From a phage, in the sequence record PV636258.1: a stretch of 64,000 nucleotides of DNA; one strand, 5' to 3'. Within the stretch, counting starts at the first letter, position 1, and the number at the start of each line of letters is the position of its first letter. Positions 27,922 through 49,741 of the stretch are shown piece after piece. Both the position numbers and the translations under genes were made by a program. The notes below the pieces were generated by a model that ran no database searches, was not told the DNA's origin, and saw only the letters and a list, made by a program, of their open reading frames with translations.

Positions 27922-29547
27922 ATGGGTTTCAATATGTTAGACAACTTGCGTTGGTTTTACGGGCGCGTTGAAGACGTGAATGATCCCGATCAAAACGGGC
28001 GCGTCGCAGTACGCATCTATGGGGTGCACACGGAGGATACCACTCTCCTGCCTACAGAATTATTGCCTTGGGGTAAAATGCTTATGCCAGCATCTAACGC
28101 ATCCTCGGCAGGTTTAGGCTGGTCTCCGACGGGTATCACTGTCGGCTCTGACGTTATGGGGTTTGCTTTGGATGAAGCATATCAGAACATCCGTATTGCA
28201 TGGGTATGGCCAGCAGCAACACCAACAGATGGGTCAGATACAAACCCATTGGCGCTGGGCCAGGTCGTTCAATCTATAGAAAGGCAGAAGTATAATGCCG
28301 TCGAGAATGTTCCTGTTAAGATTGAGGATGAACCACAACCGGATCCACAACCACCAGTAGACGGTTATGATCCTGAGAAGTGGATGACCGTGGCTCGTGG
28401 GGAATTGGGCGTCAAAGAATATTCTGGTAAGTTCAATAACAACCCAAGGATATTGGAATATCATAAGACAACTTCCCTGGGGGCTTCAGAAGATGAAGTT
28501 AGTTGGTGTGCGTCGTTTGTTGGATGGGTTCTGATACAGGCCGGATATACATCAACACGTTCTGCTTTGGCTCGCTCATATCTACAATGGGGGTCTCCTC
28601 TGTCAGAACCACGTTACGGCGCTGTTGTAGTGTTCCGGCGCGGGAACAACCCGACATTCGGTCACGTTGCATTCGTTCAGAAATTTGACGCCAACTACGT
28701 TTGGTGTATCGGGGGAAACCAATCCGATTCTGTGAAGGTGAGCCGTTTTAGCCGCTCATCCGTGTTGGGTTATCGTTGGCCAGGTCCAGCAACTACAGCT
28801 TCAGCAGCTCCGGCACAACAAAACGGTAAATGGTCTGAACCTATTCCAGATCGTACCCCGAAAGTCCAAGAAACACCGCCTCCTTCTGGTCGTGTTCAGG
28901 ATATTGACAACACAGGAGAGGTATCGGTTCCTTCGGCTGGGGGGTCTCGTTATCCATACAACAATGTTATGGCTTCTCGCGCTGGGCATATTATGGAGGT
29001 CGATGACACTCCAGGCGGGGAACGTTTGCATTGGATGCACTCTTCTGGGTCTTATAAGCAAATGCTTCCTGACGGTGATGTTGTTAATAAATCAGTCAAA
29101 GATCATTATGACCTAACGATGTTCGACAAACGTTATTATGTGGGGCGCGATCATAACCTGACTATCGGCGGGACTGAAGTACAGCGTAAGACAGGAGAAG
29201 TTTACCACTTGCACTCTTCTAACTATTCCAATGTGGTCGCTGGAACAGCGTTGATGAAATTTTCCCAATTGGCTGAGATACAGGCACAGAACGTGTTGCG
29301 TCTCATCTGTGAAATGTTTGAAGTGTCTAACACTTTGAAGGTTCCTAAGATACTGGCAACTGAAATAATTTGCGATAAATTATCGGTCGCACAGACTATT
29401 GAAGGCAACATCAAATATGCTGAAGGCGCTGGTCGCGCCGCCTCACGTGCGGGGGCAACTCCTGTAACAACTACAGGCCCAGGTCCAATTGATATAAAAC
29501 CGGAGTTAGAGGATAACGGTGGCAATTTTGGTGGTAAAGGCGCATGA
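27922..29547 (+). CDS. 5: Baseplate central spike/hub protein, gp5-like, with CHAP/NlpC-P60-type cell-wall hydrolase domain
   Basis: N-terminus LRWFYGRVEDVNDP..GRVAVRIYGVHTEDTTLLPTELLPWG parallels the T4 gp5 OB domain; middle domain has Cys in SWCASFVGW and His in GHVAFV. Confidence 0.7.
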   Translation: MGFNMLDNLRWFYGRVEDVNDPDQNGRVAVRIYGVHTEDTTLLPTELLPWGKMLMPASNASSAGLGWSPTGITVGSDVMGFALDEAYQNIRIAWVWPAATPTDGSDTNPLALGQVVQSIERQKYNAVENVPVKIEDEPQPDPQPPVDGYDPEKWMTVARGELGVKEYSGKFNNNPRILEYHKTTSLGASEDEVSWCASFVGWVLIQAGYTSTRSALARSYLQWGSPLSEPRYGAVVVFRRGNNPTFGHVAFVQKFDANYVWCIGGNQSDSVKVSRFSRSSVLGYRWPGPATTASAAPAQQNGKWSEPIPDRTPKVQETPPPSGRVQDIDNTGEVSVPSAGGSRYPYNNVMASRAGHIMEVDDTPGGERLHWMHSSGSYKQMLPDGDVVNKSVKDHYDLTMFDKRYYVGRDHNLTIGGTEVQRKTGEVYHLHSSNYSNVVAGTALMKFSQLAEIQAQNVLRLICEMFEVSNTLKVPKILATEIICDKLSVAQTIEGNIKYAEGAGRAASRAGATPVTTTGPGPIDIKPELEDNGGNFGGKGA

Positions 29548-36338: not shown

Positions 36339-37133
36339 TTAGCAGAAACTCTTGTATGCTGCCGCCAGTTTAGTATCATACTGGTTTTTCGCATATGCCG
36401 GACCATTGTACCGACGAGCAAACTCGGCCCAATTCTTGTTCTTCAGGGCTTTCCACATATTGGCATCTGCCTTGATGAACTTGACAAATGCCAGAAGGTG
36501 AGCGCGTTCACCAGTCAGGAAATCAGTGAACATCTCTTTGGCATTTGAATAGCCACAGATTTGGCAGTTGAACCCCATGATCTGGAATAGGCCGTAGGAA
36601 GCACTCTCGTAAGCGCAGTCCTCGTCAAGGGCGATTGCACCCTGAAGGCGTTCCAACTCCGCGTCTCCGCCGATATACCCGCCAGAATTGGGGTTAACCA
36701 ATGTTGGATAGAGTTGGTACAGAGCATTGGCTCTTGCTTGCCCGAATTTGGCCGTCACCTTTTTGTACATGATGTGGCGCTCAAACAGAGTTTTGATCTT
36801 GCCAGTTTTGGTAAAACCCGTGCCACGGGATTCTACCTGATTCACAGCTTTCATACTGGCCAGCTCAACACCAAGTTCACGTGCTGCGTCAACCAAGTCC
36901 GCTTCGGTCAGATGTTCCTGGTGAGCGTCTCCAGCGTTTCGGATAGCATAGAAGGTCTTTGGCCCAGCAATACCATCAATAACCAATCCAGCACCTGCCT
37001 GAACGGATTTGACAGCATTCTCTGTTGCCTTACCAAATATGCCATCGGCTGTAAGAGAGAAACCGATTTTGTTGAGGCTTTGTTGAAGTGCTTTGACTTC
37101 AGAACCTCGGTTGCCAAGTTTTAGAATGGCCAT
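36339..37133 (-). CDS. Endolysin: N-terminal peptidoglycan-binding domain plus C-terminal muramidase-like domain
   Basis: N-terminus MAILKLGNRGSEVKALQQSLNKIGF (PG_binding_1-like repeat); C-terminal YGLFQIMGFN block; GGAGG SD before the ATG at 37133. Confidence 0.65.
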   Translation of the reverse strand: MAILKLGNRGSEVKALQQSLNKIGFSLTADGIFGKATENAVKSVQAGAGLVIDGIAGPKTFYAIRNAGDAHQEHLTEADLVDAARELGVELASMKAVNQVESRGTGFTKTGKIKTLFERHIMYKKVTAKFGQARANALYQLYPTLVNPNSGGYIGGDAELERLQGAIALDEDCAYESASYGLFQIMGFNCQICGYSNAKEMFTDFLTGERAHLLAFVKFIKADANMWKALKNKNWAEFARRYNGPAYAKNQYDTKLAAAYKSFC

Positions 37134-40698: not shown

Positions 40699-41052
40699 TT
40701 AGGACAGTTGCTTCAGTTTGTAAATCGTTTGATAGCACAGAGTCTTGATTTCGTCAAGCGTATTTTGTAAATGGCTATCACACTGATTGTAGATCCCATT
40801 AACGTCGATGATCACGCTGTTGATATACGATATCGGTTCAGGATTGTACAATTTGATGTTCTCGAATCCTGGAATGTATATACCTCCCGCACCAATATAC
40901 GCTTCCGTAAAGGTGTCCAGCAAGTCCTCCAGTTCCCCGTAGAACTCCCCGAGTGCCTTGTGCTTGGCATAGGACGTTGTAACGAAGTGGAGGGCATGAG
41001 AGTGGGCTATAGCAAGCAGTCCACGGTTGATGAATATACTCGCGTTAACCAT
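40699..41052 (-). CDS. Hypothetical protein
   Basis: 117-aa ORF, ATG start. Confidence 0.4.
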   Translation of the reverse strand: MVNASIFINRGLLAIAHSHALHFVTTSYAKHKALGEFYGELEDLLDTFTEAYIGAGGIYIPGFENIKLYNPEPISYINSVIIDVNGIYNQCDSHLQNTLDEIKTLCYQTIYKLKQLS

Positions 41053-41101
41053 GATTGTTTCCTCAGAAAAAGAAATCCCCCTGTATTTAGGGGGATTGTC
41101 A

Positions 41102-41344
41102 TCAAGGCTTGATCAAAGTCAGCTTGACGGTTTCACCCGTGCTGGTGTTCGTCAGGGTCATAATGTTCTGTGCGTTCACAGACTTCACTTTCCCCTGATG
41201 TTTATCCCCGTTGCGATCATAGTAATCAATCAAATCGCCTTTGTTAGGGCGGCCAACGTCGGTGATGTCATACATGCCCTGCTGTCCAAGACGGCGATGG
41301 TCAACCTTTGCTTCCTTCAAGAGGAAGTCCTGGAATCCTTTCAT
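41102..41344 (-). CDS. Hypothetical protein
   Basis: 80-aa ORF, ATG start. Confidence 0.4.
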   Translation of the reverse strand: MKGFQDFLLKEAKVDHRRLGQQGMYDITDVGRPNKGDLIDYYDRNGDKHQGKVKSVNAQNIMTLTNTSTGETVKLTLIKP

Positions 41345-41353
41345 ACAACCTCC

Positions 41354-41923
41354 TTAGACAGGTTTAACGCCGATATATTTGGCAATGTCCGCAGCTAGGG
41401 TTTTTCCCTTACTGATGTCATGCTGTTTGCCAGCGACTGTGACAATTACATATGGATCGTCTTCTCCGCCGAAGTCGATTGCGACAGGTTTTCCAATACC
41501 AGGAATACCGGAATATTCAAACTCTGTACGACCGCTTTTACGAGATTTGCCAACGCCCAGCGCTTTACCGATCATCTTATCCATGTTCGCCAATTCTTGG
41601 GCATAGGATTCTGTGACCTGACCTTTGCTGGCATCTTTCCCAAAGAAGAACTCAAAACCGTCATGAACGGCAACCACATCTTTACCGACAGAAACTGCAT
41701 GAACCTGGTCCGGTGTGAGTTTTACTTTGGTGGTGTTGCCGTTAGTCAATTCCAGATTATAGATGTCGGCCTGATTATCTGGAGTGATCTGGGTTACGGT
41801 GGCACCAGTACACCATTGGGTTCCGTCGGCCTGTTTGGTGATGGTTACACTTTTGCCTTGTATGCCGCCATGAGTTTGCGGTTGTTGAGCTTGTTCTTTA
41901 AAATATTCGATAAACGGTTTCAT
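41354..41923 (-). CDS. Hypothetical protein
   Basis: 189-aa ORF, ATG start. Confidence 0.45.
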   Translation of the reverse strand: MKPFIEYFKEQAQQPQTHGGIQGKSVTITKQADGTQWCTGATVTQITPDNQADIYNLELTNGNTTKVKLTPDQVHAVSVGKDVVAVHDGFEFFFGKDASKGQVTESYAQELANMDKMIGKALGVGKSRKSGRTEFEYSGIPGIGKPVAIDFGGEDDPYVIVTVAGKQHDISKGKTLAADIAKYIGVKPV

Positions 41924-41952
41924 CGTGGATCTCCTAAGGATTTTGATGTATT

Positions 41953-41970
41953 TAGCCCCCGAAGGGGCTA
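41953..41970 (-). terminator. Stem-loop (TAGCCCC-CGAA-GGGGCTA)
   Basis: 7-bp perfect inverted repeat downstream of the 909-aa gene. Confidence 0.45.
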
Positions 41971-41974
41971 TGAC

Positions 41975-44704
41975 TTATTTCAGACTAATCTGAAGATTAC
42001 CACCCAGCGATTGTTCATATTCACTGTATGCACTATCACCATTACTCATAGCCCATTCGTCGGATTGGCGAGCGCGTTCAAGGGTCATGAGATTTGGCTC
42101 GGTAGGATTATAGCCTTTAGATTTCGCGTCGTTGTATACCGTTTGCAGGTATTGGTTGGCACGGTTGATCTGATCCTTGAATTCACGATATGCTCCTTCG
42201 GTCGTATTGCGACGGAAAGTGATATCCCAAGCAACATTCAGAACTGTACCATTACTGGCTGTGTATACCTGCCAATCCAGATCTCGTCCATTAGGAGCGC
42301 TGTCACGAATGGATTCGGCATAGGTGGCCAGATCACCTGCATTCTTACCTCCAGCAGCCTGATCTTTAGCCCGAGCCAGAGCATCAATGACTGCTGTGCG
42401 GTTCCTGGACTGCGCCAAATCTTTGTCTTGGAACATAATCGCGCCAAATTTACTGACAGTGATGTCATTCAGGAACAGATTGTTAGGGTTATAGTTTGAT
42501 GAACTGAGGTGGCTCAGTTGCGACGCTGCGTCTTTCAGGCGTCGAGAAATCTCATCCAATGCATCTTGCACTGATTTGACAGACAACGAAATATCATATC
42601 CATTGCTGTCTACTACATTTCGACCATTTTCAGTCAACATGGTGGTGATGTTGGCTTTGTTTCGATCGAAGTCGTAAGTTACGTTGGTAACGAATCTTGC
42701 GGCTTGCAACTTGCTGCCAGCAGGGAACTGGAAATCCCACGCTACAGAGAAGCCATGAACGGTTTCACCAAAAAATTTAGCATTGCTTGGTACTTTGATG
42801 TTTGCAGTGATCACTGCATTTTCACTGGAATTGGTGTTGATTTCACCAAAGATAGTACGCTCGTCGGAAGATTGAACCAACAGAGTATCTTTTCCACGCC
42901 AATCATAGCGGACTTTGAATGTTGTACGAGGAAACTCTTTCATCAGATCAAGTTTGACCGCCTTGCCCAAGGTAAACCGATTCAGCAGAGCGTCAGCGAT
43001 CTTCAATGTGAAAGAACCGCAATCAACGTAAGAATATCCCTGAGAACGGGAAATTTTTTGAATCGGATATGGGGCACCGTTAATAGGAACAACACGGCAT
43101 TCTACTTCTCCTGCAAATTGAGAATCGGCTGCACGGGAGATTGCGCCCACTATTTCATAAGCGGCGTTTTTCACGTCTCCTTCCAGCATAAGTTGGTCAT
43201 GACCAGACAAATCTGATACTACTTCTACAGAAAGTTTTCCGTTGACAATTCCCCAGAAATAAACCTGAATGTCCAGACCACCCGAAGTACGATATTTGCC
43301 CGCACCGATTCGTGTTAGTTTCTCACCTGCATACATACCGACCTGTTGTGGAGCATATGTATCAACGATACCCAAGATGCGGGCGATATAACCCTGGTTG
43401 CGCAGATCATCCATAGAACCGGTTTTTGGAAGAGTTTTCATGTCGACGGGAGCAGTAGCCCCTATTCCAAATTCAACATATGCCACAATCTTGCCGCCGG
43501 ACTTCAGTTCCCACCCCATTCCCTGACGGTCAGAAGCTGCCATGATTTTGCGATCCACTTCACCGCGACCGACATATTCTTTGTTGAATACGGTCACCTG
43601 AGCGATAGATTGGGAGCGGGCAATCTTCGCCATTGCGCCATCTTTGACCATGATGGCCAGATCATTGGAACTCAGAGTCACATCGTTCGCACCGACTACC
43701 TTCACAACAGAACTGAAGATACCGTTGGACTTCGCCATGATTGAAATGTTCCAGTCAGGATTGGTAGAATCTGAATTGCTGGTGTCAACATCCACAACAA
43801 GTACAACCTGCCCGCCTTTCTTGAACGTGTACTGGTCATACAACCCTTTCTTCTGTTTAGACATGTCTGCGCCGATTAAGTCCTGGTTGGTGAAACCGCG
43901 CTTCATGCTCCAGGATACTTCTGTGCCATCCAGGTATTTATCAAAATTGTAGCCATAGAAGGTGGCAACTTCACGGGAACCGCTCACCAGTCGGACGTAG
44001 TTTCCGCGGATAGGGTCGCGACCATTCTTCAATTCAAGGCTAGTGTCGGAAGAGTTATACCAATCACGGTTGACTTCAACCTCTGAACTGTTGTAAGAAG
44101 ATGAAGTCCCCACATCCAGAGTATCGTTCTGAACCGGAACGTCACCGACTTTGTCCGGATCATCCCATGTGACACCTTTCATTTTCGGGCCATCAAATAC
44201 CTGAGCAGGATCCTTACCTTTACGCACAACCCATACAAATGCACGATCAGGGATAGGGGTATACGTCAGGTCCATGACATTGAGCTTCTGCTTCAGGCCG
44301 GACTGACGGATGATCTTCGGCAGGAGGGTAACACCACGTTCCAATGCTTTCTTGGAGAAGTTAATTGCAAAGCCGTCAATGGTTTTACCCAAAGGCGTCG
44401 CCATGAATTGCTTTGTTGCTTCAATCATGGATGCGATAACGCGCATCGGATTCTTGAAACGACCGATGGCATCGGGATATGTGGAACCACGCTTCTGACC
44501 GATAAAGACTTGGCGAACATTCTTGCCTAGACCTTGTGGGGTATAGAATTGAATACGGAATTCTTTTTCGTCTTCATCAACAAATGTGAAGAAAATGTCG
44601 CCAGCGTTCTTCTTGCCGAATGTCAATTCATACGGGGATGAGTTAAACGCTTCGTCTAATTGTTTAGACTCTTCAAGAAAGTTCAAGAAAGATGGGATGG
44701 CCAT
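41975..44704 (-). CDS. Large hypothetical protein (909 aa)
   Basis: Uninterrupted 2.7-kb ORF, ATG with AGGAG SD; S/T/N/G-rich, beta-rich composition; no polymerase or ATPase motifs seen. Confidence 0.6.
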   Translation of the reverse strand: MAIPSFLNFLEESKQLDEAFNSSPYELTFGKKNAGDIFFTFVDEDEKEFRIQFYTPQGLGKNVRQVFIGQKRGSTYPDAIGRFKNPMRVIASMIEATKQFMATPLGKTIDGFAINFSKKALERGVTLLPKIIRQSGLKQKLNVMDLTYTPIPDRAFVWVVRKGKDPAQVFDGPKMKGVTWDDPDKVGDVPVQNDTLDVGTSSSYNSSEVEVNRDWYNSSDTSLELKNGRDPIRGNYVRLVSGSREVATFYGYNFDKYLDGTEVSWSMKRGFTNQDLIGADMSKQKKGLYDQYTFKKGGQVVLVVDVDTSNSDSTNPDWNISIMAKSNGIFSSVVKVVGANDVTLSSNDLAIMVKDGAMAKIARSQSIAQVTVFNKEYVGRGEVDRKIMAASDRQGMGWELKSGGKIVAYVEFGIGATAPVDMKTLPKTGSMDDLRNQGYIARILGIVDTYAPQQVGMYAGEKLTRIGAGKYRTSGGLDIQVYFWGIVNGKLSVEVVSDLSGHDQLMLEGDVKNAAYEIVGAISRAADSQFAGEVECRVVPINGAPYPIQKISRSQGYSYVDCGSFTLKIADALLNRFTLGKAVKLDLMKEFPRTTFKVRYDWRGKDTLLVQSSDERTIFGEINTNSSENAVITANIKVPSNAKFFGETVHGFSVAWDFQFPAGSKLQAARFVTNVTYDFDRNKANITTMLTENGRNVVDSNGYDISLSVKSVQDALDEISRRLKDAASQLSHLSSSNYNPNNLFLNDITVSKFGAIMFQDKDLAQSRNRTAVIDALARAKDQAAGGKNAGDLATYAESIRDSAPNGRDLDWQVYTASNGTVLNVAWDITFRRNTTEGAYREFKDQINRANQYLQTVYNDAKSKGYNPTEPNLMTLERARQSDEWAMSNGDSAYSEYEQSLGGNLQISLK

Positions 44705-44772
44705 TGTAATTCTCCTGATTATAAAATCGGTGCGGTTTCCCTTAATTAGCGAAAAGAAAGGGGTGCTTCTTA

Positions 44773-45048
44773 TTAACGACGAAACGGGCGAGACGCGTTT
44801 TGGCGATTGTTGTAATTCTTATCAAATTGTGCCAACGCCGCCGGACTCCATTCGCGTTCCCATTCTTTGTCAACTTCGGTTTGGTTGGCAGGTTCAATCA
44901 TTTCAGCAGTAGGAAAATCGCGTTTCATAATTTCACGCAATTGTTCAGAAGGGGCGGTTTGGGCGTGGACTAATTCTTCACCGTCGTAAACTTTGGCCAT
45001 CAACCATTTGCTGCCGTAACGGATATATGCGTCGAGGATGATTTTCAT
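44773..45048 (-). CDS. Hypothetical protein
   Basis: ATG at 45048 with AGGAAC SD; the track start at 45069 is TTG. Confidence 0.4.
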   Translation of the reverse strand: MKIILDAYIRYGSKWLMAKVYDGEELVHAQTAPSEQLREIMKRDFPTAEMIEPANQTEVDKEWEREWSPAALAQFDKNYNNRQNASRPFRR

Positions 45049-45096
45049 AATGTAGTTCCTGCTTTTCAAGTTGGTGTCGTACTGCTTATGTTTAGA

Positions 45097-45124
45097 ATTA
45101 TACGTGGGTTATTGAAGAAGTAAA
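45097..45124 (-). promoter_or_regulatory. Sigma70-like early promoter (minus: TTTACT-N16-TATAAT)
   Basis: Consensus -10 TATAAT; -35 abuts the hairpin. Confidence 0.45.
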
Positions 45125-45140
45125 GGGGCTTTTGCCCCTT
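45123..45140 (-). terminator. Stem-loop (AAGGGGC-TTTT-GCCCCTT)
   Basis: 7-bp inverted repeat with flanking T-tract. Confidence 0.45.
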
Positions 45141-45152
45141 TTATTGAATAAT

Positions 45153-45791
45153 TTAAGGTGTTGGGTTGACAACGGGAATATGGAACCTGATCCCAGAGAC
45201 AATGTCCTTCAACTGTGGCTGCCAACCCGTGACCAAACGGGGTAGCGCATTAGAACCAGGATAGACAATAATGATATCGCTTCCGGTTACATTATGTTGA
45301 GGGAATTGTGACATGTATTGCTCCATCGTCACCCCTGGGTCTATCAACACAGGACCGACATCCGAAGATGCATATGTTGCCCCCAAACCGTCGACGCCCC
45401 ATGCTAATATTCCATAATCAGGAATATTGGCTTCAGAAGTTATGGTGAATCCGAAGATACGATTCAGCGCAGAAAAATCATACACGCCGTGAGCACTGTC
45501 ATATGTCAGATAACCCTTTGCCAGCATATCGGCGAATATCGCGTCTGTGTCACCAGTTGCCGGAGTCGGTATGGTAAACAATAACTCACCAGCAGGAGGT
45601 GATGGATACGTGCCGAGCGCATAAAGGCACCAAGCGTCAATGCATTTCTTGATGAATGCTTCAGGCGCGACATAATCCGCAAGGCGCATTGTACCGGAAT
45701 ATTCTGAAGTAATGATCCCTTCCTTCGCGCCCTGAATAGCCAGAAACACCATTATGTGTTCATATCCGGTCTGAGATGGAGTGATATTCAT
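45153..45791 (-). CDS. Hypothetical protein
   Basis: 212-aa ORF, stop overlapping the next start. Confidence 0.45.
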   Translation of the reverse strand: MNITPSQTGYEHIMVFLAIQGAKEGIITSEYSGTMRLADYVAPEAFIKKCIDAWCLYALGTYPSPPAGELLFTIPTPATGDTDAIFADMLAKGYLTYDSAHGVYDFSALNRIFGFTITSEANIPDYGILAWGVDGLGATYASSDVGPVLIDPGVTMEQYMSQFPQHNVTGSDIIIVYPGSNALPRLVTGWQPQLKDIVSGIRFHIPVVNPTP

Positions 45792-46408
45792 TATCTGGTC
45801 CTCTTGAGTTTCTCAATCGTGCGCTTATTCATGGCGATCACTCCTGGGTCGACCTTTGGGTTTATTGCCATGCCTTTGAAAGACACACATCGTTGAAGAT
45901 ATTTAGCCTTCTTCACGACGTCGGCTGCATAAGAATTGGATTTCTGGTTACGATTGAACCCAGCATTGTAAGAGGAAAGGGATTTGCGGATGTTTTGGTT
46001 ATGATATTCTAGCCAGAAATTCATTTCATCAAGGGCAGCATTGGCAGCATATTCTTGATTGACCAGTAATTTGATCGCGACATTGGCGTAACACTTCTGC
46101 GTTTTGCATCCCTCCCGTTTCCCGACGGTTTGGACGCGATTTTGAAATGCCCCCATATTAGCCGATTTGAGGTTATTCCGCATGGATACAACATCTTCTC
46201 CGGCGCGGCTTTCCCTCCATGATATTGCGGCGAGAGTGAAACCAAGGTCTTGTTGTTTTCCCACGTGATAGGCTGTGGCCATGGTTGAAAGTTGTTGATC
46301 AGAAAACTCATAATCACATTGGGTGGTACTTTGGGAAGCGTGCACACTCCCGCTGGCAATGGTAAAGGTCACGGACAAGGCCATGGCCTTCAACGTTGTC
46401 ATCGTCAT
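45791..46408 (-). CDS. Secreted protein with lytic-transglycosylase-like (SLT) motif
   Basis: N-terminal signal peptide (MTMTTLKAMALSVTFTIASGSVHA); block AISWRESRAG...NMGAFQ resembles the SLT catalytic E-S...G.FQ region. Confidence 0.4.
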   Translation of the reverse strand: MTMTTLKAMALSVTFTIASGSVHASQSTTQCDYEFSDQQLSTMATAYHVGKQQDLGFTLAAISWRESRAGEDVVSMRNNLKSANMGAFQNRVQTVGKREGCKTQKCYANVAIKLLVNQEYAANAALDEMNFWLEYHNQNIRKSLSSYNAGFNRNQKSNSYAADVVKKAKYLQRCVSFKGMAINPKVDPGVIAMNKRTIEKLKRTR

Positions 46409-46474
46409 GATGGCGTTCCTTATGTGTTTGTCGACTTGCAGCTCGCTGGAGCCTCCTGACAGGGTTAAAAGATA

Positions 46475-46500
46475 AAGGGCACGTGATATTTAGTGCCCTT
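46475..46500 (-). terminator. Stem-loop (AAGGGCAC/GTGCCCTT)
   Basis: 8-bp inverted repeat with 10-nt loop. Confidence 0.4.
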
Positions 46501-46504
46501 CACC

Positions 46505-46789
46505 TTATTCGTAGATCAGATGGTATGATTCCTCGATGCATTCCAACCAACCGTAGACAAATTCCATAGGATCATCCCAAGCTGTATGGGAAGCAATAGT
46601 GAAATCCCCGTCCAAGATTTGCATATCAGTATATTTGTTGAAACCTAACACGGCATCAACGACTATTAAGCCACCTTGCTCTAGATAACGCTTTGGGGTC
46701 AACGTTACCTGATAATGTTTGTTTCGCTGATTCCATAACTCGACAGCGATATCACAAGCAATCTGAATTTCATCTTTCTCTTCTGACAT
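46505..46789 (-). CDS. Hypothetical protein
   Basis: 94-aa acidic ORF. Confidence 0.4.
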   Translation of the reverse strand: MSEEKDEIQIACDIAVELWNQRNKHYQVTLTPKRYLEQGGLIVVDAVLGFNKYTDMQILDGDFTIASHTAWDDPMEFVYGWLECIEESYHLIYE

Positions 46790-47099
46790 ATGTTTGTCTC
46801 AAATATTCAGTAAAAGATTTACCCAACTTGCGGAATAGTTTAATACGACCGATCACTTTGACATAAACATCTCCATGACATGGGCGCGGCTTACACCAGC
46901 ATCCCAAGGTCTTTCCATCTAATTCAAGGAGTTCATCCTCGGTGATATCCCCTTCAATCAGGCGCACATACAAATCGTCTTCAAACAACTCAATACAGTT
47001 TCCCCGCCCGTGGTCTCTGACCTCGAACGGGTTTCCCCATTTACCAGGGCGACCAATGTAGACGTCGTATGGCTCCTTCTTGAAGTGGACGACTTTCAT
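46770..47099 (-). CDS. Conserved phage protein with GKWGNPF and CWC..PCHG motifs (DUF4326-like, tentative)
   Basis: 109 aa; motifs read directly; family name from memory. Confidence 0.4.
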   Translation of the reverse strand: MKVVHFKKEPYDVYIGRPGKWGNPFEVRDHGRGNCIELFEDDLYVRLIEGDITEDELLELDGKTLGCWCKPRPCHGDVYVKVIGRIKLFRKLGKSFTEYLRQTYVRRER

Positions 47100-47404
47100 T
47101 CCAGTTCTTCATTGTCAGAGATTCTTACCAGAAACGCCTGGTCTCTGTTTGCTTCAAGATCAACGAATCTTCGACTTCCGATAGCTTCAATTTTCCACCA
47201 ATCGAAAGAACACCAATTCTTGATGATACATTTGATAGCTTTTTGCTGCATACTACAATGAGCGCGGCGATAGCGTTCCTTGTATTTCTTTGTCCAACCG
47301 TGGTTGTCCGCCTTGTGATCATAAATAAACATCAGGCGAATAGCTTTGTACAGGCGCTTTTCAGCGCCCTTAGATTTCTTCGATACCCTGATCATGATAT
47401 GCAT
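47096..47404 (-). CDS. Hypothetical basic protein
   Basis: 102-aa ORF, K/R-rich. Confidence 0.4.
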   Translation of the reverse strand: MHIMIRVSKKSKGAEKRLYKAIRLMFIYDHKADNHGWTKKYKERYRRAHCSMQQKAIKCIIKNWCSFDWWKIEAIGSRRFVDLEANRDQAFLVRISDNEELE

Positions 47405-47407
47405 GCG

Positions 47408-49741
47408 TTAATCCTTCTTAATCACTTCGGTCATGCCATTACGCAGACCATAACGAATGTTGTGCTGGAAATATTCTTGGAACTCCTGTTCACGCTGACT
47501 GATGACAAACAGATTGTTCCCACCAAATTTATGTTTCAACATCTCGACGGATTCTTGAACCCCTCGCTCACTCATGTTTTCGAGTATCTCATCCAACACG
47601 AAGAGGTTACATTGTACAGACGCCTTCAGGTTAGCGACGTCCCGCAGGGCTAATGTCACCGCCAGATTGAGTCGGCTGCGTTGTCCCGTAGACAGGGAGA
47701 ATATGCTTTGCCCTTTACGACCTGCAGCGCTCATGGTGATTTCAAATGTATCATCAACCGCAATATCCAAGAACATATTGAGTGCTTCAAGATACTCGTT
47801 TATTTTACTATTGAGGAAAGGCAAATACAGGCTGATAATTCGAGCCTTGGTCTGATCATCTTTTAGGAAGAACAGAAGATGGTTCAGGTCTTGCAATTTC
47901 TCATCCAACTCTACGCGCCGCGCATTCAGATCTTCCATTAATGCCGTGATGCGAGCGATCTCTCCTTCCAGGGCGTCAGTTGGTGTCGGCTTAACCGCCA
48001 ATTTACGCTCTAAATCGGCAATGGATGCCTCCAGAGGGGCACGGCGTGATTTCAGGCTGGTGAGTTTATCAGCCGTGTCGTTGATACTCTTAGAGAGCTG
48101 CTCACGGGCTTGGCGAATAGAAGTTGTGATATCTTCATAACGGGTGTCTACGGCCTTGAGGACGTCGTTAATTTTGGACTGTTGTTCCCGCTGTAAAGAT
48201 GTTTTCTCAACAGCAGCGACATCATAGAATCCTTGGATGTCGCGTTTTAATGTAGTGATCGCTGATTCCGCTTCTCGGATTTCATTGCGCAAAGCATCCA
48301 GTTCTTTGTCAATAACCGAAATTTGAGAAGATAATTCTGAATCTCTGACATTGTAATTCTCAATCAGGGAATTCACTTCTTCTAGGGCTGTATCAACCTG
48401 AAGAATCTTGTCAGTCAGTTCACTGATTTGTGGATAATATTGACTTTCAATGCGTGATTTGGTATCGTCCGACACTAATTGCGTACACGTAGGGCAAGTG
48501 CCCATATCGTGGAAACGTTTGATGGCAGATTCATGTCCTTCCATTTCTGTTACGAATTTGATACGGAAGTTCTCACCCTGCTGACGCCGCGCTAATGCTT
48601 TGTTCAGTTCATCCAGGTTAGCATTCCGTTGGCTGACCAGATCATTTTTACGTTCCGCGACTACCGCCATTCTCTCCCGAATTTCTTGTAATGAACGTTC
48701 TCCATCAGACACCTCGATACGCTCATAGTCTTCAGCCTTGGTATCAGCCTCATCCTGAACCGCTTGGATTTTGGCCGCATACTCTTCATTGATGGCATCG
48801 ATATCCCCTTTCATTTCGGCATTCAGTCTATTTCGAACATCTGATAATTCTGATTCCAATTTAGAGTCTTGAGCACGGGACTCTGTCAGTTGTTCCTGCA
48901 CTGCGCCGATATCTGAATTCAGGCTATTCAGACGTTCCTTCTCTTGGACAAGAATATCCGCAGATTGTTGCTGGATCATCGCATTGGAATTATTGATCTG
49001 TTCCAACTGCGCTTGCTGGCCTTTTAGATTCACATCATGAAAGGCGTAATCATTGGTGACCGTCGTGAGTTCATTCGTTACTGTCTTGATAGATGCTTTT
49101 ACATCTTCATTCATCAGACTGAAGAACCCCAAATCCCAGATTGTCTCTACCATAGCGCGACGGTCGGCAGTGTACATTTCCGTGAATGGGATGAACTTCT
49201 CTTTGCCTAGAACCAGGGAGTTCTCAAACATCTTCTGGTCTACGCCAATCAGGTTCACGATATATTTGTTCATGTCGGCTTTGGCCGCATCATTCACGAC
49301 CTGCTTCCACTGACCGTCTACCATCTGATAGACTTCTACGAAATCAGGTTTGATACCACGACGGACTTTCCATTCACTTCCTCGAGTGGAGAACTCAACT
49401 TCACCCACGCATTCCTTTTTGTTTTGAGAGTTAACCAATCCGGCTTTCTTTTCTTTCTTACTGTATGTGTCGTTGTACAGAACGAAGAATAACAACCAAA
49501 CAAGCATGGTAGATTTACCAGCGCCATTGTCATCGGATGTAACCAAGGTTGCCGAATTGCGTTGGTAATCAATTTCCATGAATTCATTACCGATGGAACG
49601 GAAGTTTTTAGCGCGACCGCGATGGAAAGTCAGTTTGTGGGTAATTTCCCCACGGATTTCAAATGGTGCTTCAACAGAAACAGGAGTGTCCGCTTCTTTC
49701 AACAGCGAACCAAATTTTGATAATAGGTCTACATTGCTCAT
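47408..49741 (-). CDS. 46: Recombination endonuclease subunit gp46 (Rad50/SbcC-like ABC ATPase)
   Basis: N-terminal Walker A DDNGAGKST, long coiled coil with zinc-hook CPTC, C-terminal signature LSTGQRSRL and Walker B LFVLDE. Confidence 0.8.
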   Translation of the reverse strand: MSNVDLLSKFGSLLKEADTPVSVEAPFEIRGEITHKLTFHRGRAKNFRSIGNEFMEIDYQRNSATLVTSDDNGAGKSTMLVWLLFFVLYNDTYSKKEKKAGLVNSQNKKECVGEVEFSTRGSEWKVRRGIKPDFVEVYQMVDGQWKQVVNDAAKADMNKYIVNLIGVDQKMFENSLVLGKEKFIPFTEMYTADRRAMVETIWDLGFFSLMNEDVKASIKTVTNELTTVTNDYAFHDVNLKGQQAQLEQINNSNAMIQQQSADILVQEKERLNSLNSDIGAVQEQLTESRAQDSKLESELSDVRNRLNAEMKGDIDAINEEYAAKIQAVQDEADTKAEDYERIEVSDGERSLQEIRERMAVVAERKNDLVSQRNANLDELNKALARRQQGENFRIKFVTEMEGHESAIKRFHDMGTCPTCTQLVSDDTKSRIESQYYPQISELTDKILQVDTALEEVNSLIENYNVRDSELSSQISVIDKELDALRNEIREAESAITTLKRDIQGFYDVAAVEKTSLQREQQSKINDVLKAVDTRYEDITTSIRQAREQLSKSINDTADKLTSLKSRRAPLEASIADLERKLAVKPTPTDALEGEIARITALMEDLNARRVELDEKLQDLNHLLFFLKDDQTKARIISLYLPFLNSKINEYLEALNMFLDIAVDDTFEITMSAAGRKGQSIFSLSTGQRSRLNLAVTLALRDVANLKASVQCNLFVLDEILENMSERGVQESVEMLKHKFGGNNLFVISQREQEFQEYFQHNIRYGLRNGMTEVIKKD

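Follow-up and report, generated by a model that had tools for sequence, protein, structure and literature searches.

Vs.1 of phage T4 (T4p112, 181 aa), listed as an 'uncharacterised 20.7 kDa protein', belongs to the phage protein family phrog_600 ('unknown function'), in which its relatives come from Straboviridae, Felixounavirus, and Vibrio, Acinetobacter, and Aeromonas phages. In the T4 genome, vs.1 lies directly downstream of regB and begins 7 nt after it. The similarity of T4 vs.1 to soluble lytic transglycosylases (SLT) has been in print since comparative-genomics work of 2006 (PMC1524935). A literature search found no enzymatic, localization, or genetic data on any Vs.1-family member, the comparative-genomics note being the only account that it returned.

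EtgA of the EPEC type III system (8urn) carries a Sec signal and a single ~150-aa GH23 domain, acts in the periplasm, and has an extra catalytic Asp in a β-hairpin. VirB1, IpgF, and P19-type proteins are likewise small specialized lytic transglycosylases of secretion systems. Among phage-encoded proteins, the N-terminal domain of T7 gp16 and the LT_GEWL domains of tape-measure and internal-core proteins are built into large structural proteins that lack signal peptides. The Sec-exported or SAR endolysins, such as P1 Lyz and phage 21 R, serve as main lysins and belong to other glycosidase families.

The SLT-like gene and its family

The window is the whole 64,000-nucleotide stretch of the phage sequence record PV636258.1. 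Positions 44700..47500 of the window are 100% identical to the Salmonella phages PM10 and Chennai (Kuttervirus, Ackermannviridae), and the Chennai annotation transfers onto it. The SLT-like gene occupies 45791..46408 on the minus strand, where the original prediction had placed a 205-aa open reading frame with no strand given. In the ORF listing it starts at an ATG and encodes 205 aa; its TAA stop codon lies at 45791..45793 (minus strand). The ribosome-binding site AAGGAA (46416..46421, minus strand), read from the sequence, stands 7 nt before the ATG.

A profile search matches residues 7-179 of the protein to phrog_600 with an E of 4e-60, and BLASTP aligns it to T4 Vs.1 at 31% identity (E 8e-21). 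On this similarity, it is the Ackermannviridae orthologue of T4 Vs.1. The family is found by tblastn in 2093 of 50,697 phage records, or ~4% of sequenced phage genomes, and an exhaustive profile search returns homologues in 614 clusters (50% identity), almost all 160-210 aa long. Judged by the phrog_600 match and by this breadth of occurrence, 45791..46408 is a genuine gene and not a chance ORF.

Vs.1-type genes are carried by T4-like, Vi1-like, and Felix O1-like phages and by many Vibrio, Acinetobacter, and Aeromonas phages, and the host genera listed for the tblastn-matched phage records are Gram-negative throughout. Among large virulent myoviruses with Gram-negative hosts, the gene is common. 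Among 72,556 plasmids, tblastn detects no relative of the SLT-like protein. Bacterial genomes scanned with alignment-derived patterns gave 139 matches; none of these codes for a relative, so the scan provides no evidence of cellular or secretion-system homologues. NCBIfam holds no model matching the SLT-like protein, T4 Vs.1, T4 RegB, or the downstream neighbor DUF7270.

The phage encodes two further wall-active proteins, both of which the original prediction had named. The endolysin (36339..37133, minus strand) combines PG_binding_1 with an N-acetylmuramidase domain (PF11860, E 3.8e-58), lacks a signal sequence, and belongs by Pfam to an enzyme class other than that of the SLT-like protein. 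The gp5-like spike (27922..29547, plus strand) contains a CHAP peptidoglycan-hydrolase domain (E 3.3e-10); CHAP in place of lysozyme on this spike was remarked on earlier for CBA120 (PMC3184105). The view that a third wall-active enzyme would be notable was overstated: the gene is the orthologue of T4 vs.1, its SLT similarity has long been published, and such genes are common. The SLT name already appears in UniRef and in some GenBank records, and a secretion signal is mentioned in one record. The SLT prediction for this gene is correct, yet already known as a prediction.

Predicted fold and active site

The Pfam SLT family (PF01464) matches the protein marginally, with 21.6 bits against a cutoff of 21.3 (E 1.6e-4). 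T4 Vs.1 scores above the cutoff at 25.1 bits, and 34 of 49 relatives match at E < 0.01, with a best E of 2.9e-9. A single-sequence PDB search gave no match for the SLT-like protein. A profile of 49 homologues does match proteins of known structure, the closest being EtgA (8urn, E 1.2e-4), followed by g-type lysozyme (E 6e-3); the ES motif lines up in both.

AlphaFold2, run with the 49-homologue alignment, yields a model with a pLDDT of 89.3 and a pTM of 0.82. It has an all-helical core and a small β region after helix 56-67, and residues 1-30 are disordered (pLDDT <55). Residues 35-174 (45887..46306, minus strand), where pLDDT is 93-98, make up the predicted lysozyme-like/GH23 catalytic domain, as delimited by pLDDT, Foldseek, and the family profile. 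The top six Foldseek matches in the PDB are MltD, a GH23 chitinase, Slt70, MltE, MltC, and T7 gp16. The best matches reach a probability of 0.96-1.0 (1.0 for the lytic transglycosylases MltD, Slt70, MltE, and MltC), but their E is only 5e-3 and their TM ~0.45 (0.45-0.47). Foldseek against BFVD returns SLT/LT_GEWL phage proteins, one of them an Aeromonas phage Vs.1. The marginal Pfam match and the modest Foldseek E and TM values suggest that the catalytic domain is divergent.

The putative catalytic residue is Glu66, whose codon forms GAA AGC (46208..46213, minus strand) with that of Ser67; the assignment follows from conservation and from alignment to EtgA and g-type lysozyme. In the AlphaFold2 model, Glu66 sits at the C-terminal end of helix 56-67, with β strands next. 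Glu66 is conserved in 206/206 aligned homologues, and the residue after it is Ser in 198 of them and Thr in the other 8. Across 208 aligned sequences, E66, Y147, G150, Y160, and Q39 are invariant. Gly fills position 86 in 200 of the 208; F or Y stands at position 88, and Q (119) or H (73) at position 89. Asn occupies position 148 in 185 sequences, and the corresponding motif of the SLT-like protein is S146-Y147-N148-A149-G150. The E-S...G-F-Q block on which the original prediction rested is thus present as E66-S67 ... G86-A87-F88-Q89, and it stands in a predicted SLT-type fold around an invariant Glu.

The protein contains both motif II (G-L-M-Q-like) and motif III (A-Y-N-x-G) of family 1, as these are reportedly defined in the Blackburn and Clarke classification. 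Positions 72, 84, and 90, where a second acid is expected in g-type lysozymes and EtgA, are variable in the homologue alignment. Because no second acid is conserved, the alignment favors lytic transglycosylase rather than hydrolase chemistry but does not prove it.

Predicted signal peptide, cysteines, and C-terminal extension

Codons 1-24 (46337..46408, minus strand), read from the sequence, encode a predicted Sec signal peptide. The N-terminus, MTMTTLKAMALSVTFTIASGSVHA up to the predicted cleavage site and SQ beyond it, has a basic n-region (MTMTTLK, with K7), an uncharged hydrophobic core (AMALSVTFTIA), and a c-region (SGSVHA) that ends in a V-H-A cleavage motif, with cleavage predicted after residue 24. 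The signal peptide was judged by rules and not by a trained predictor. Of 193 full-length homologues, 189 begin with a hydrophobic segment under a hydropathy rule, and small residues at -3 and -1 recur in relatives. The signal peptide of the original prediction is therefore a feature whose character is kept across the family, and the protein is probably Sec-exported. Detection of the peptide SQSTTQCDYEFSDQQLSTMATAYHIGK would mark signal-peptide cleavage.

Cys31 and Cys174 show a strong tendency to occur together, with both present in 109 sequences, neither in 79, and one in 20. This pattern fits a disulfide formed in the periplasm, and the Gram-negative character of all listed hosts likewise gives indirect support to export. 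In the Ackermannviridae clade, Cys101 and Cys106 are a further pair that tends to occur together. A lipoprotein reading was considered and rejected, as no lipobox precedes Cys31.

The mature protein is basic, with a pI of 9.7. Residues 175-205 (45794..45886, minus strand), delimited by comparison of relatives, pI, and the model, form a basic C-terminal extension with a pI of 11.1 and 8 K/R. It is predicted to be helical (pLDDT ~91). The extension is specific to the Ackermannviridae clade and is absent in the T4, Acinetobacter-phage, and P0025 homologues.

Genomic setting and expression

The downstream neighbor is the DUF7270 gene (45153..45791, minus strand; 212 aa; Pfam DUF7270 E 2.5e-119), and the stop codon of the SLT-like gene overlaps its ATG in the sequence TAATG. 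DUF7270 homologues are virion proteins, namely LIMEstone1 ORF085 and Vi01 Vi01_096c ('phage associated protein'). The DUF7270 model is fair (pLDDT 81) and has no match among PDB folds better than E 0.5, so the function of this partner cannot be inferred from it. The gene order gp46 - DUF4326 - (small ORF) - SLT - DUF7270 - ... - ~750-920-aa protein is retained in relatives that are merely 56% identical.

The 5′ leader of the SLT-like gene, defined by comparison with relatives, spans 46409..46480 (minus strand). A terminator-like hairpin of the upstream 94-aa ORF, recognized from sequence and folding, spans 46467..46505 (minus strand). Its arms, AAGGGCAC and GTGCCCTT, form a 13-bp stem and are followed by a T-run, and its loop carries CTAAATAT, with the late-promoter-like TAAATA at 46487..46492 (minus strand). 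The 111-nt fold that includes it (46395..46505) has a total energy of -31.6 kcal/mol (z = -3.1).

TAAATA occurs 21 times in the window, with 8 of these sites inside the intergenic 7% of the sequence. Copies stand 27-43 nt ahead of the baseplate, hub, gp5-like (spike), and endolysin genes and of two virion-protein genes, compared with 84 nt from the ATG of the SLT-like gene. From this intergenic enrichment and placement, we infer that TAAATA is the late promoter core of the phage. The exact T4-type TATAAATA occurs at two sites in the window, both before baseplate genes. In one clade, the TAAATA before the SLT-like gene is replaced by TAATTA. A sigma-70-like promoter candidate at 46434..46407 was discarded, as its -10 element overlaps the start codon.

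The 5′ leader and the first ~16 codons (to 46361) form the best-conserved stretch of the locus, at 88-100% identity to LIMEstone1, L020, and L010 where flanking coding DNA is 28-80% identical. The leader matched nothing meaningful in Rfam, and its folding energy from the presumed late start is ordinary (z +0.79). T4 vs.1 lacks both its own late promoter and any nearby TATAAATA, and expression timing of Vs.1-type genes therefore probably differs between lineages.

Proposed role and alternative readings

The SLT-like protein is probably a Sec-exported, soluble, periplasmic GH23 glycan-strand cutter that is made late and is auxiliary to the holin-dependent muramidase endolysin. Confidence is good for the predicted fold, active site, and export taken together; the specific role as an accessory to the endolysin is a tentative proposal. 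The pre-protein would be made from a late transcript shared with the virion protein DUF7270, exported by Sec, and cut after VHA24. A Cys31-Cys174 disulfide would staple the protein, probably joined by Cys101-Cys106 in the Ackermannviridae clade. Glu66 would act as a single general acid/base on MurNAc-β-1,4-GlcNAc bonds, assisted by Ser67, Gln89, and Tyr147. With no second acidic residue conserved, the expected product is 1,6-anhydroMurNAc, which corresponds to lytic transglycosylase chemistry and not to hydrolysis. Because the enzyme would reach the wall without a holin, it would most likely loosen or remodel the sacculus late in infection, as an accessory and not as the main lysin.

A periplasmic glycan cutter that is independent of the holin could alter lysis timing, lysis inhibition, burst size, or muropeptide signaling. 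Enzymes that already tolerate the periplasm are also candidate enzybiotics.

Public records offer a different identity for the gene, that of a RegB-type site-specific endoribonuclease. It is named 'endoribonuclease / RegB' in the identical records of PM10 and Chennai and in those of Maynard, AR2819, LIMEstone1, Coodle, and others, while further records call it 'hypothetical protein' or 'SLT domain-containing protein'. The name may have its origin in the label CL0037, which we take to be the Pfam lysozyme-like clan. What speaks for RegB, apart from database names, is a 2011 table that files the 205-aa protein under 'T4 RegB endoribonuclease family (CL0037)' (PMC3220722). BLASTP finds no similarity to T4 RegB (E 1.3), and the Pfam family REGB_T4 (PF10715) does not match at E <= 10, though it recovers T4 RegB itself at 8e-69; the RegB label is for these reasons a misannotation, and the identity is refuted at the sequence level. 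The lack of a sequence match between the single protein and any PDB chain also counts against it, the real T4 homologue is the product of vs.1, the neighbor of regB, and a signal peptide would make no sense on an mRNA nuclease. There is next to no chance that the protein is such a nuclease. The label is wrong across Ackermannviridae records and has already led one published proteome to class the protein under DNA/RNA processes; fixing the annotation would be of immediate value.

Within the GH23 fold, the same protein in the same location could be a hydrolytic muramidase of the g-type-lysozyme kind. GH23 includes both chemistries, the family profile also matches g-type lysozymes, the local motif AAISWRESRAG is close to the g-lysozyme IAAIISRESRAG, and E71 and D72 follow the catalytic Glu in the Ackermannviridae clade. 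Position 72, however, varies among family members (Y 51, gap 35, D 33, N 18), and the site equivalent to the Asp of the g-lysozyme 'QVD' is not acidic. Both the motifs (Y-N-x-G, G-x-F-Q) and the closest structural matches are of the family-1 lytic transglycosylase kind, which leaves hydrolysis rather unlikely. Retention of the N-terminus as an uncleaved SAR segment is less probable still, and we regard it as very unlikely. The protein would then be a second regulated endolysin, tethered to the inner membrane and inactive until the holin depolarizes it. As in SAR domains, Ala, Ser, Thr, and Gly are frequent in its hydrophobic core, AMALSVTFTIASGSV, and its putative late promoter is of the endolysin's class; the V-H-A / A-x-A cleavage motif is nevertheless preserved in relatives, T4 and other members carry ordinary, more hydrophobic signal peptides, and the first ordered residue of the model is ~Cys31, just past the predicted cleavage site.

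A further possibility is a virion-borne wall cutter like T7 gp16 or PRD1 P7, held inside the particle or stuck to it by the basic tail and acting at the next infection. In CsCl-purified Sajous1 virions, gp211, which is 99% identical and syntenic to the ORF at 45791..46408, was detected with 31 spectra, above the tail lysozyme with 20 and the endolysin with 6, and the downstream gp214-217 were likewise detected (Harris et al. 2024, Table S3). A purely periplasmic protein would not predict this detection. The gene also heads a cluster of virion-protein genes and overlaps one member, and the spike bears a CHAP peptidase and not a glycan-cutting domain, which a glycan cutter in the particle would complement. 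The virion proteomes of LIMEstone1 and Vi01, however, report DUF7270 (ORF085 and 096c) and the downstream cluster and omit the SLT homologues ORF086 and Vi01_097c, so that one of three proteomes supports virion association. The Sec-type signal peptide found throughout the family is a poor fit to particle assembly in the cytoplasm, no prohead-protease-type (L/I-x-E) targeting motif was seen near the N-terminus, and the pI of 9.7 makes sticky co-purification plausible. The Sajous1 detection could reflect such co-purification of an abundant, basic, late protein, and a virion-borne cutter is on balance unlikely. Slightly more doubtful is a combined route in Kuttervirus, in which the exported Vs.1-type enzyme ends on or in the released particle, through its basic tail after lysis or through non-canonical use of its N-terminus. 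Were this so, the glycan cutting missing from the CHAP-only spike would be supplied at the next infection by a wall enzyme routed from periplasm to virion, and the 120-nt stretch of leader and first codons, almost unchanged among relatives, could be the control element that sets its timing.

Comparison with known systems

The SLT-like protein, probably a soluble periplasmic lytic transglycosylase, most resembles T4 Vs.1. Both consist of a signal peptide and one ~150-aa SLT-like domain, share E-S, G-x-F/Y-Q/H, Y-N-x-G, and Tyr160, and have a mature pI of ~9.7. Unlike T4 Vs.1, the Ackermannviridae version carries a basic C-terminal extension of ~30 residues and the C101/C106 pair. The T4 gene follows regB closely, whereas the gene described here comes after a terminator that contains a late-like motif, and its end overlaps a virion gene.

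EtgA has the same architecture of a Sec signal and a single GH23 domain of ~150 aa. The extra Asp of EtgA has no conserved counterpart in the Vs.1-family alignment. Close homology to EtgA-type enzymes is not detectable, as neither the 72,556 plasmids nor the bacterial genomes scanned with the chosen patterns gave a relative of the SLT-like protein, and the phage shows no sign of a partner rod or secretion apparatus.

Slt70, MltC, MltD, and MltE, the family-1 enzymes of E. coli and Pseudomonas, are the best structural matches and share the ES, GLMQ-like, and AYNAG-like motifs. Unlike the Mlt enzymes, the SLT-like protein has no lipobox, and it lacks superhelical and LysM accessory domains; its identity to these structural matches is 11-18%, at a TM of ~0.45.

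The N-terminal domain of T7 gp16 and the LT_GEWL domains of tape-measure and internal-core proteins share its fold class and are likewise phage-encoded and separate from the endolysin, but the SLT-like protein is small, stands alone, and bears a Sec signal. Like P1 Lyz and phage 21 R, it would reach the periplasm without a holin pore; those enzymes are the main lysins, whereas in this phage a cytoplasmic muramidase endolysin with a peptidoglycan-binding domain is already present. By sequence and model, the SLT-like protein is a member of the Vs.1 family by descent, of the EtgA type by architecture, and a GH23 family-1-like lytic transglycosylase by predicted fold.

Annotation of the Vs.1 gene

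The gene for the predicted exported lytic-transglycosylase-like protein (45791..46408, -) is widely annotated in public records as a RegB endoribonuclease. The name is carried by the records of phages PM10, Chennai, Maynard, AR2819, LIMEstone1 (as ORF086), and Coodle. The encoded protein has no similarity to T4 RegB, and its T4 homologue is vs.1, the gene that adjoins regB. Judged from sequence comparison, a RegB identity is thus ruled out and the RegB name is an annotation error. The error has been passed on to a published proteome table, which places the Vs.1 protein under DNA/RNA processes.

Leader and hairpin elements

The interval 46361..46480 (-) comprises the 5′ leader and the first ~16 codons of the Vs.1 gene. 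Its sequence is 88-100% identical across Limestonevirus, a clade of 84% identity, and a clade of 56% identity, whereas the coding DNA on either side reaches only 28-80% identity in the same comparison. An Rfam search of this interval returned no match, and its folding energy is nothing out of the ordinary. Part of the leader is similar to DNA encoding the C-terminal end of DUF4326, whose gene directly abuts the Vs.1 gene in distant clades (loci L012, L032, and L035).

At three genes of the region, G+C-rich terminator-type hairpins contain or directly precede TAAATA, the late-promoter-like motif. One such site lies before the Vs.1 gene (46467..46505, -), and two others, at about 41075..41100 and about 41950..41975 (-), lie in front of the genes for a 117-aa and a 189-aa protein. 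This layout could stop early read-through transcripts and leave late transcripts free to start beyond the 5′ arm. TAATTA replaces TAAATA in one clade (L020-L024).

Neighbors with particle-associated homologues

Amid replication genes, 40699..45791 (-) holds a cluster whose homologues are particle-associated in published proteomes. It encodes proteins of 117, 80, 189, and 909 aa, corresponding to gp217, gp216, gp215, and gp214 (196 spectra) of the related phage Sajous1, together with DUF7270; all fall in the PHROG category of unknown function. DUF7270 (45153..45791, -; 212 aa) is a virion protein found only in Ackermannviridae-like sequences, and its start codon overlaps the Vs.1 stop codon. 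Its AlphaFold model is fair (pLDDT 81), and a PDB fold search with this model gave nothing better than E 0.5.

The gp5-like baseplate spike (27922..29547, +) contains Gp5 OB and CHAP domains and no lysozyme domain. This makes the known wall enzyme of the particle a peptidase or amidase, not an enzyme that cuts glycan strands, a point made for the CBA120 spike in 2011 (PMC3184105).

Comparison with Chennai and T4

Between about 26600 and 29600, gene coordinates are offset by 6 bases from the Chennai record (MN953776). The offset is absent at 36339 and at 45791, so the window is not identical to Chennai end to end; small indels separate the two.

The 117-aa protein (40699..41052, -), for which Harris et al. 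reported a ferritin-like model and detection in virions, matches phrog_858 (E 3e-44), the family to which T4 rI.-1 ("starvation-inducible transcriptional regulator") belongs. Because rI.-1 and vs.1 are about 3 kb apart in the T4 genome, the 117-aa and Vs.1 genes may be the remnant of a gene neighborhood shared with T4.
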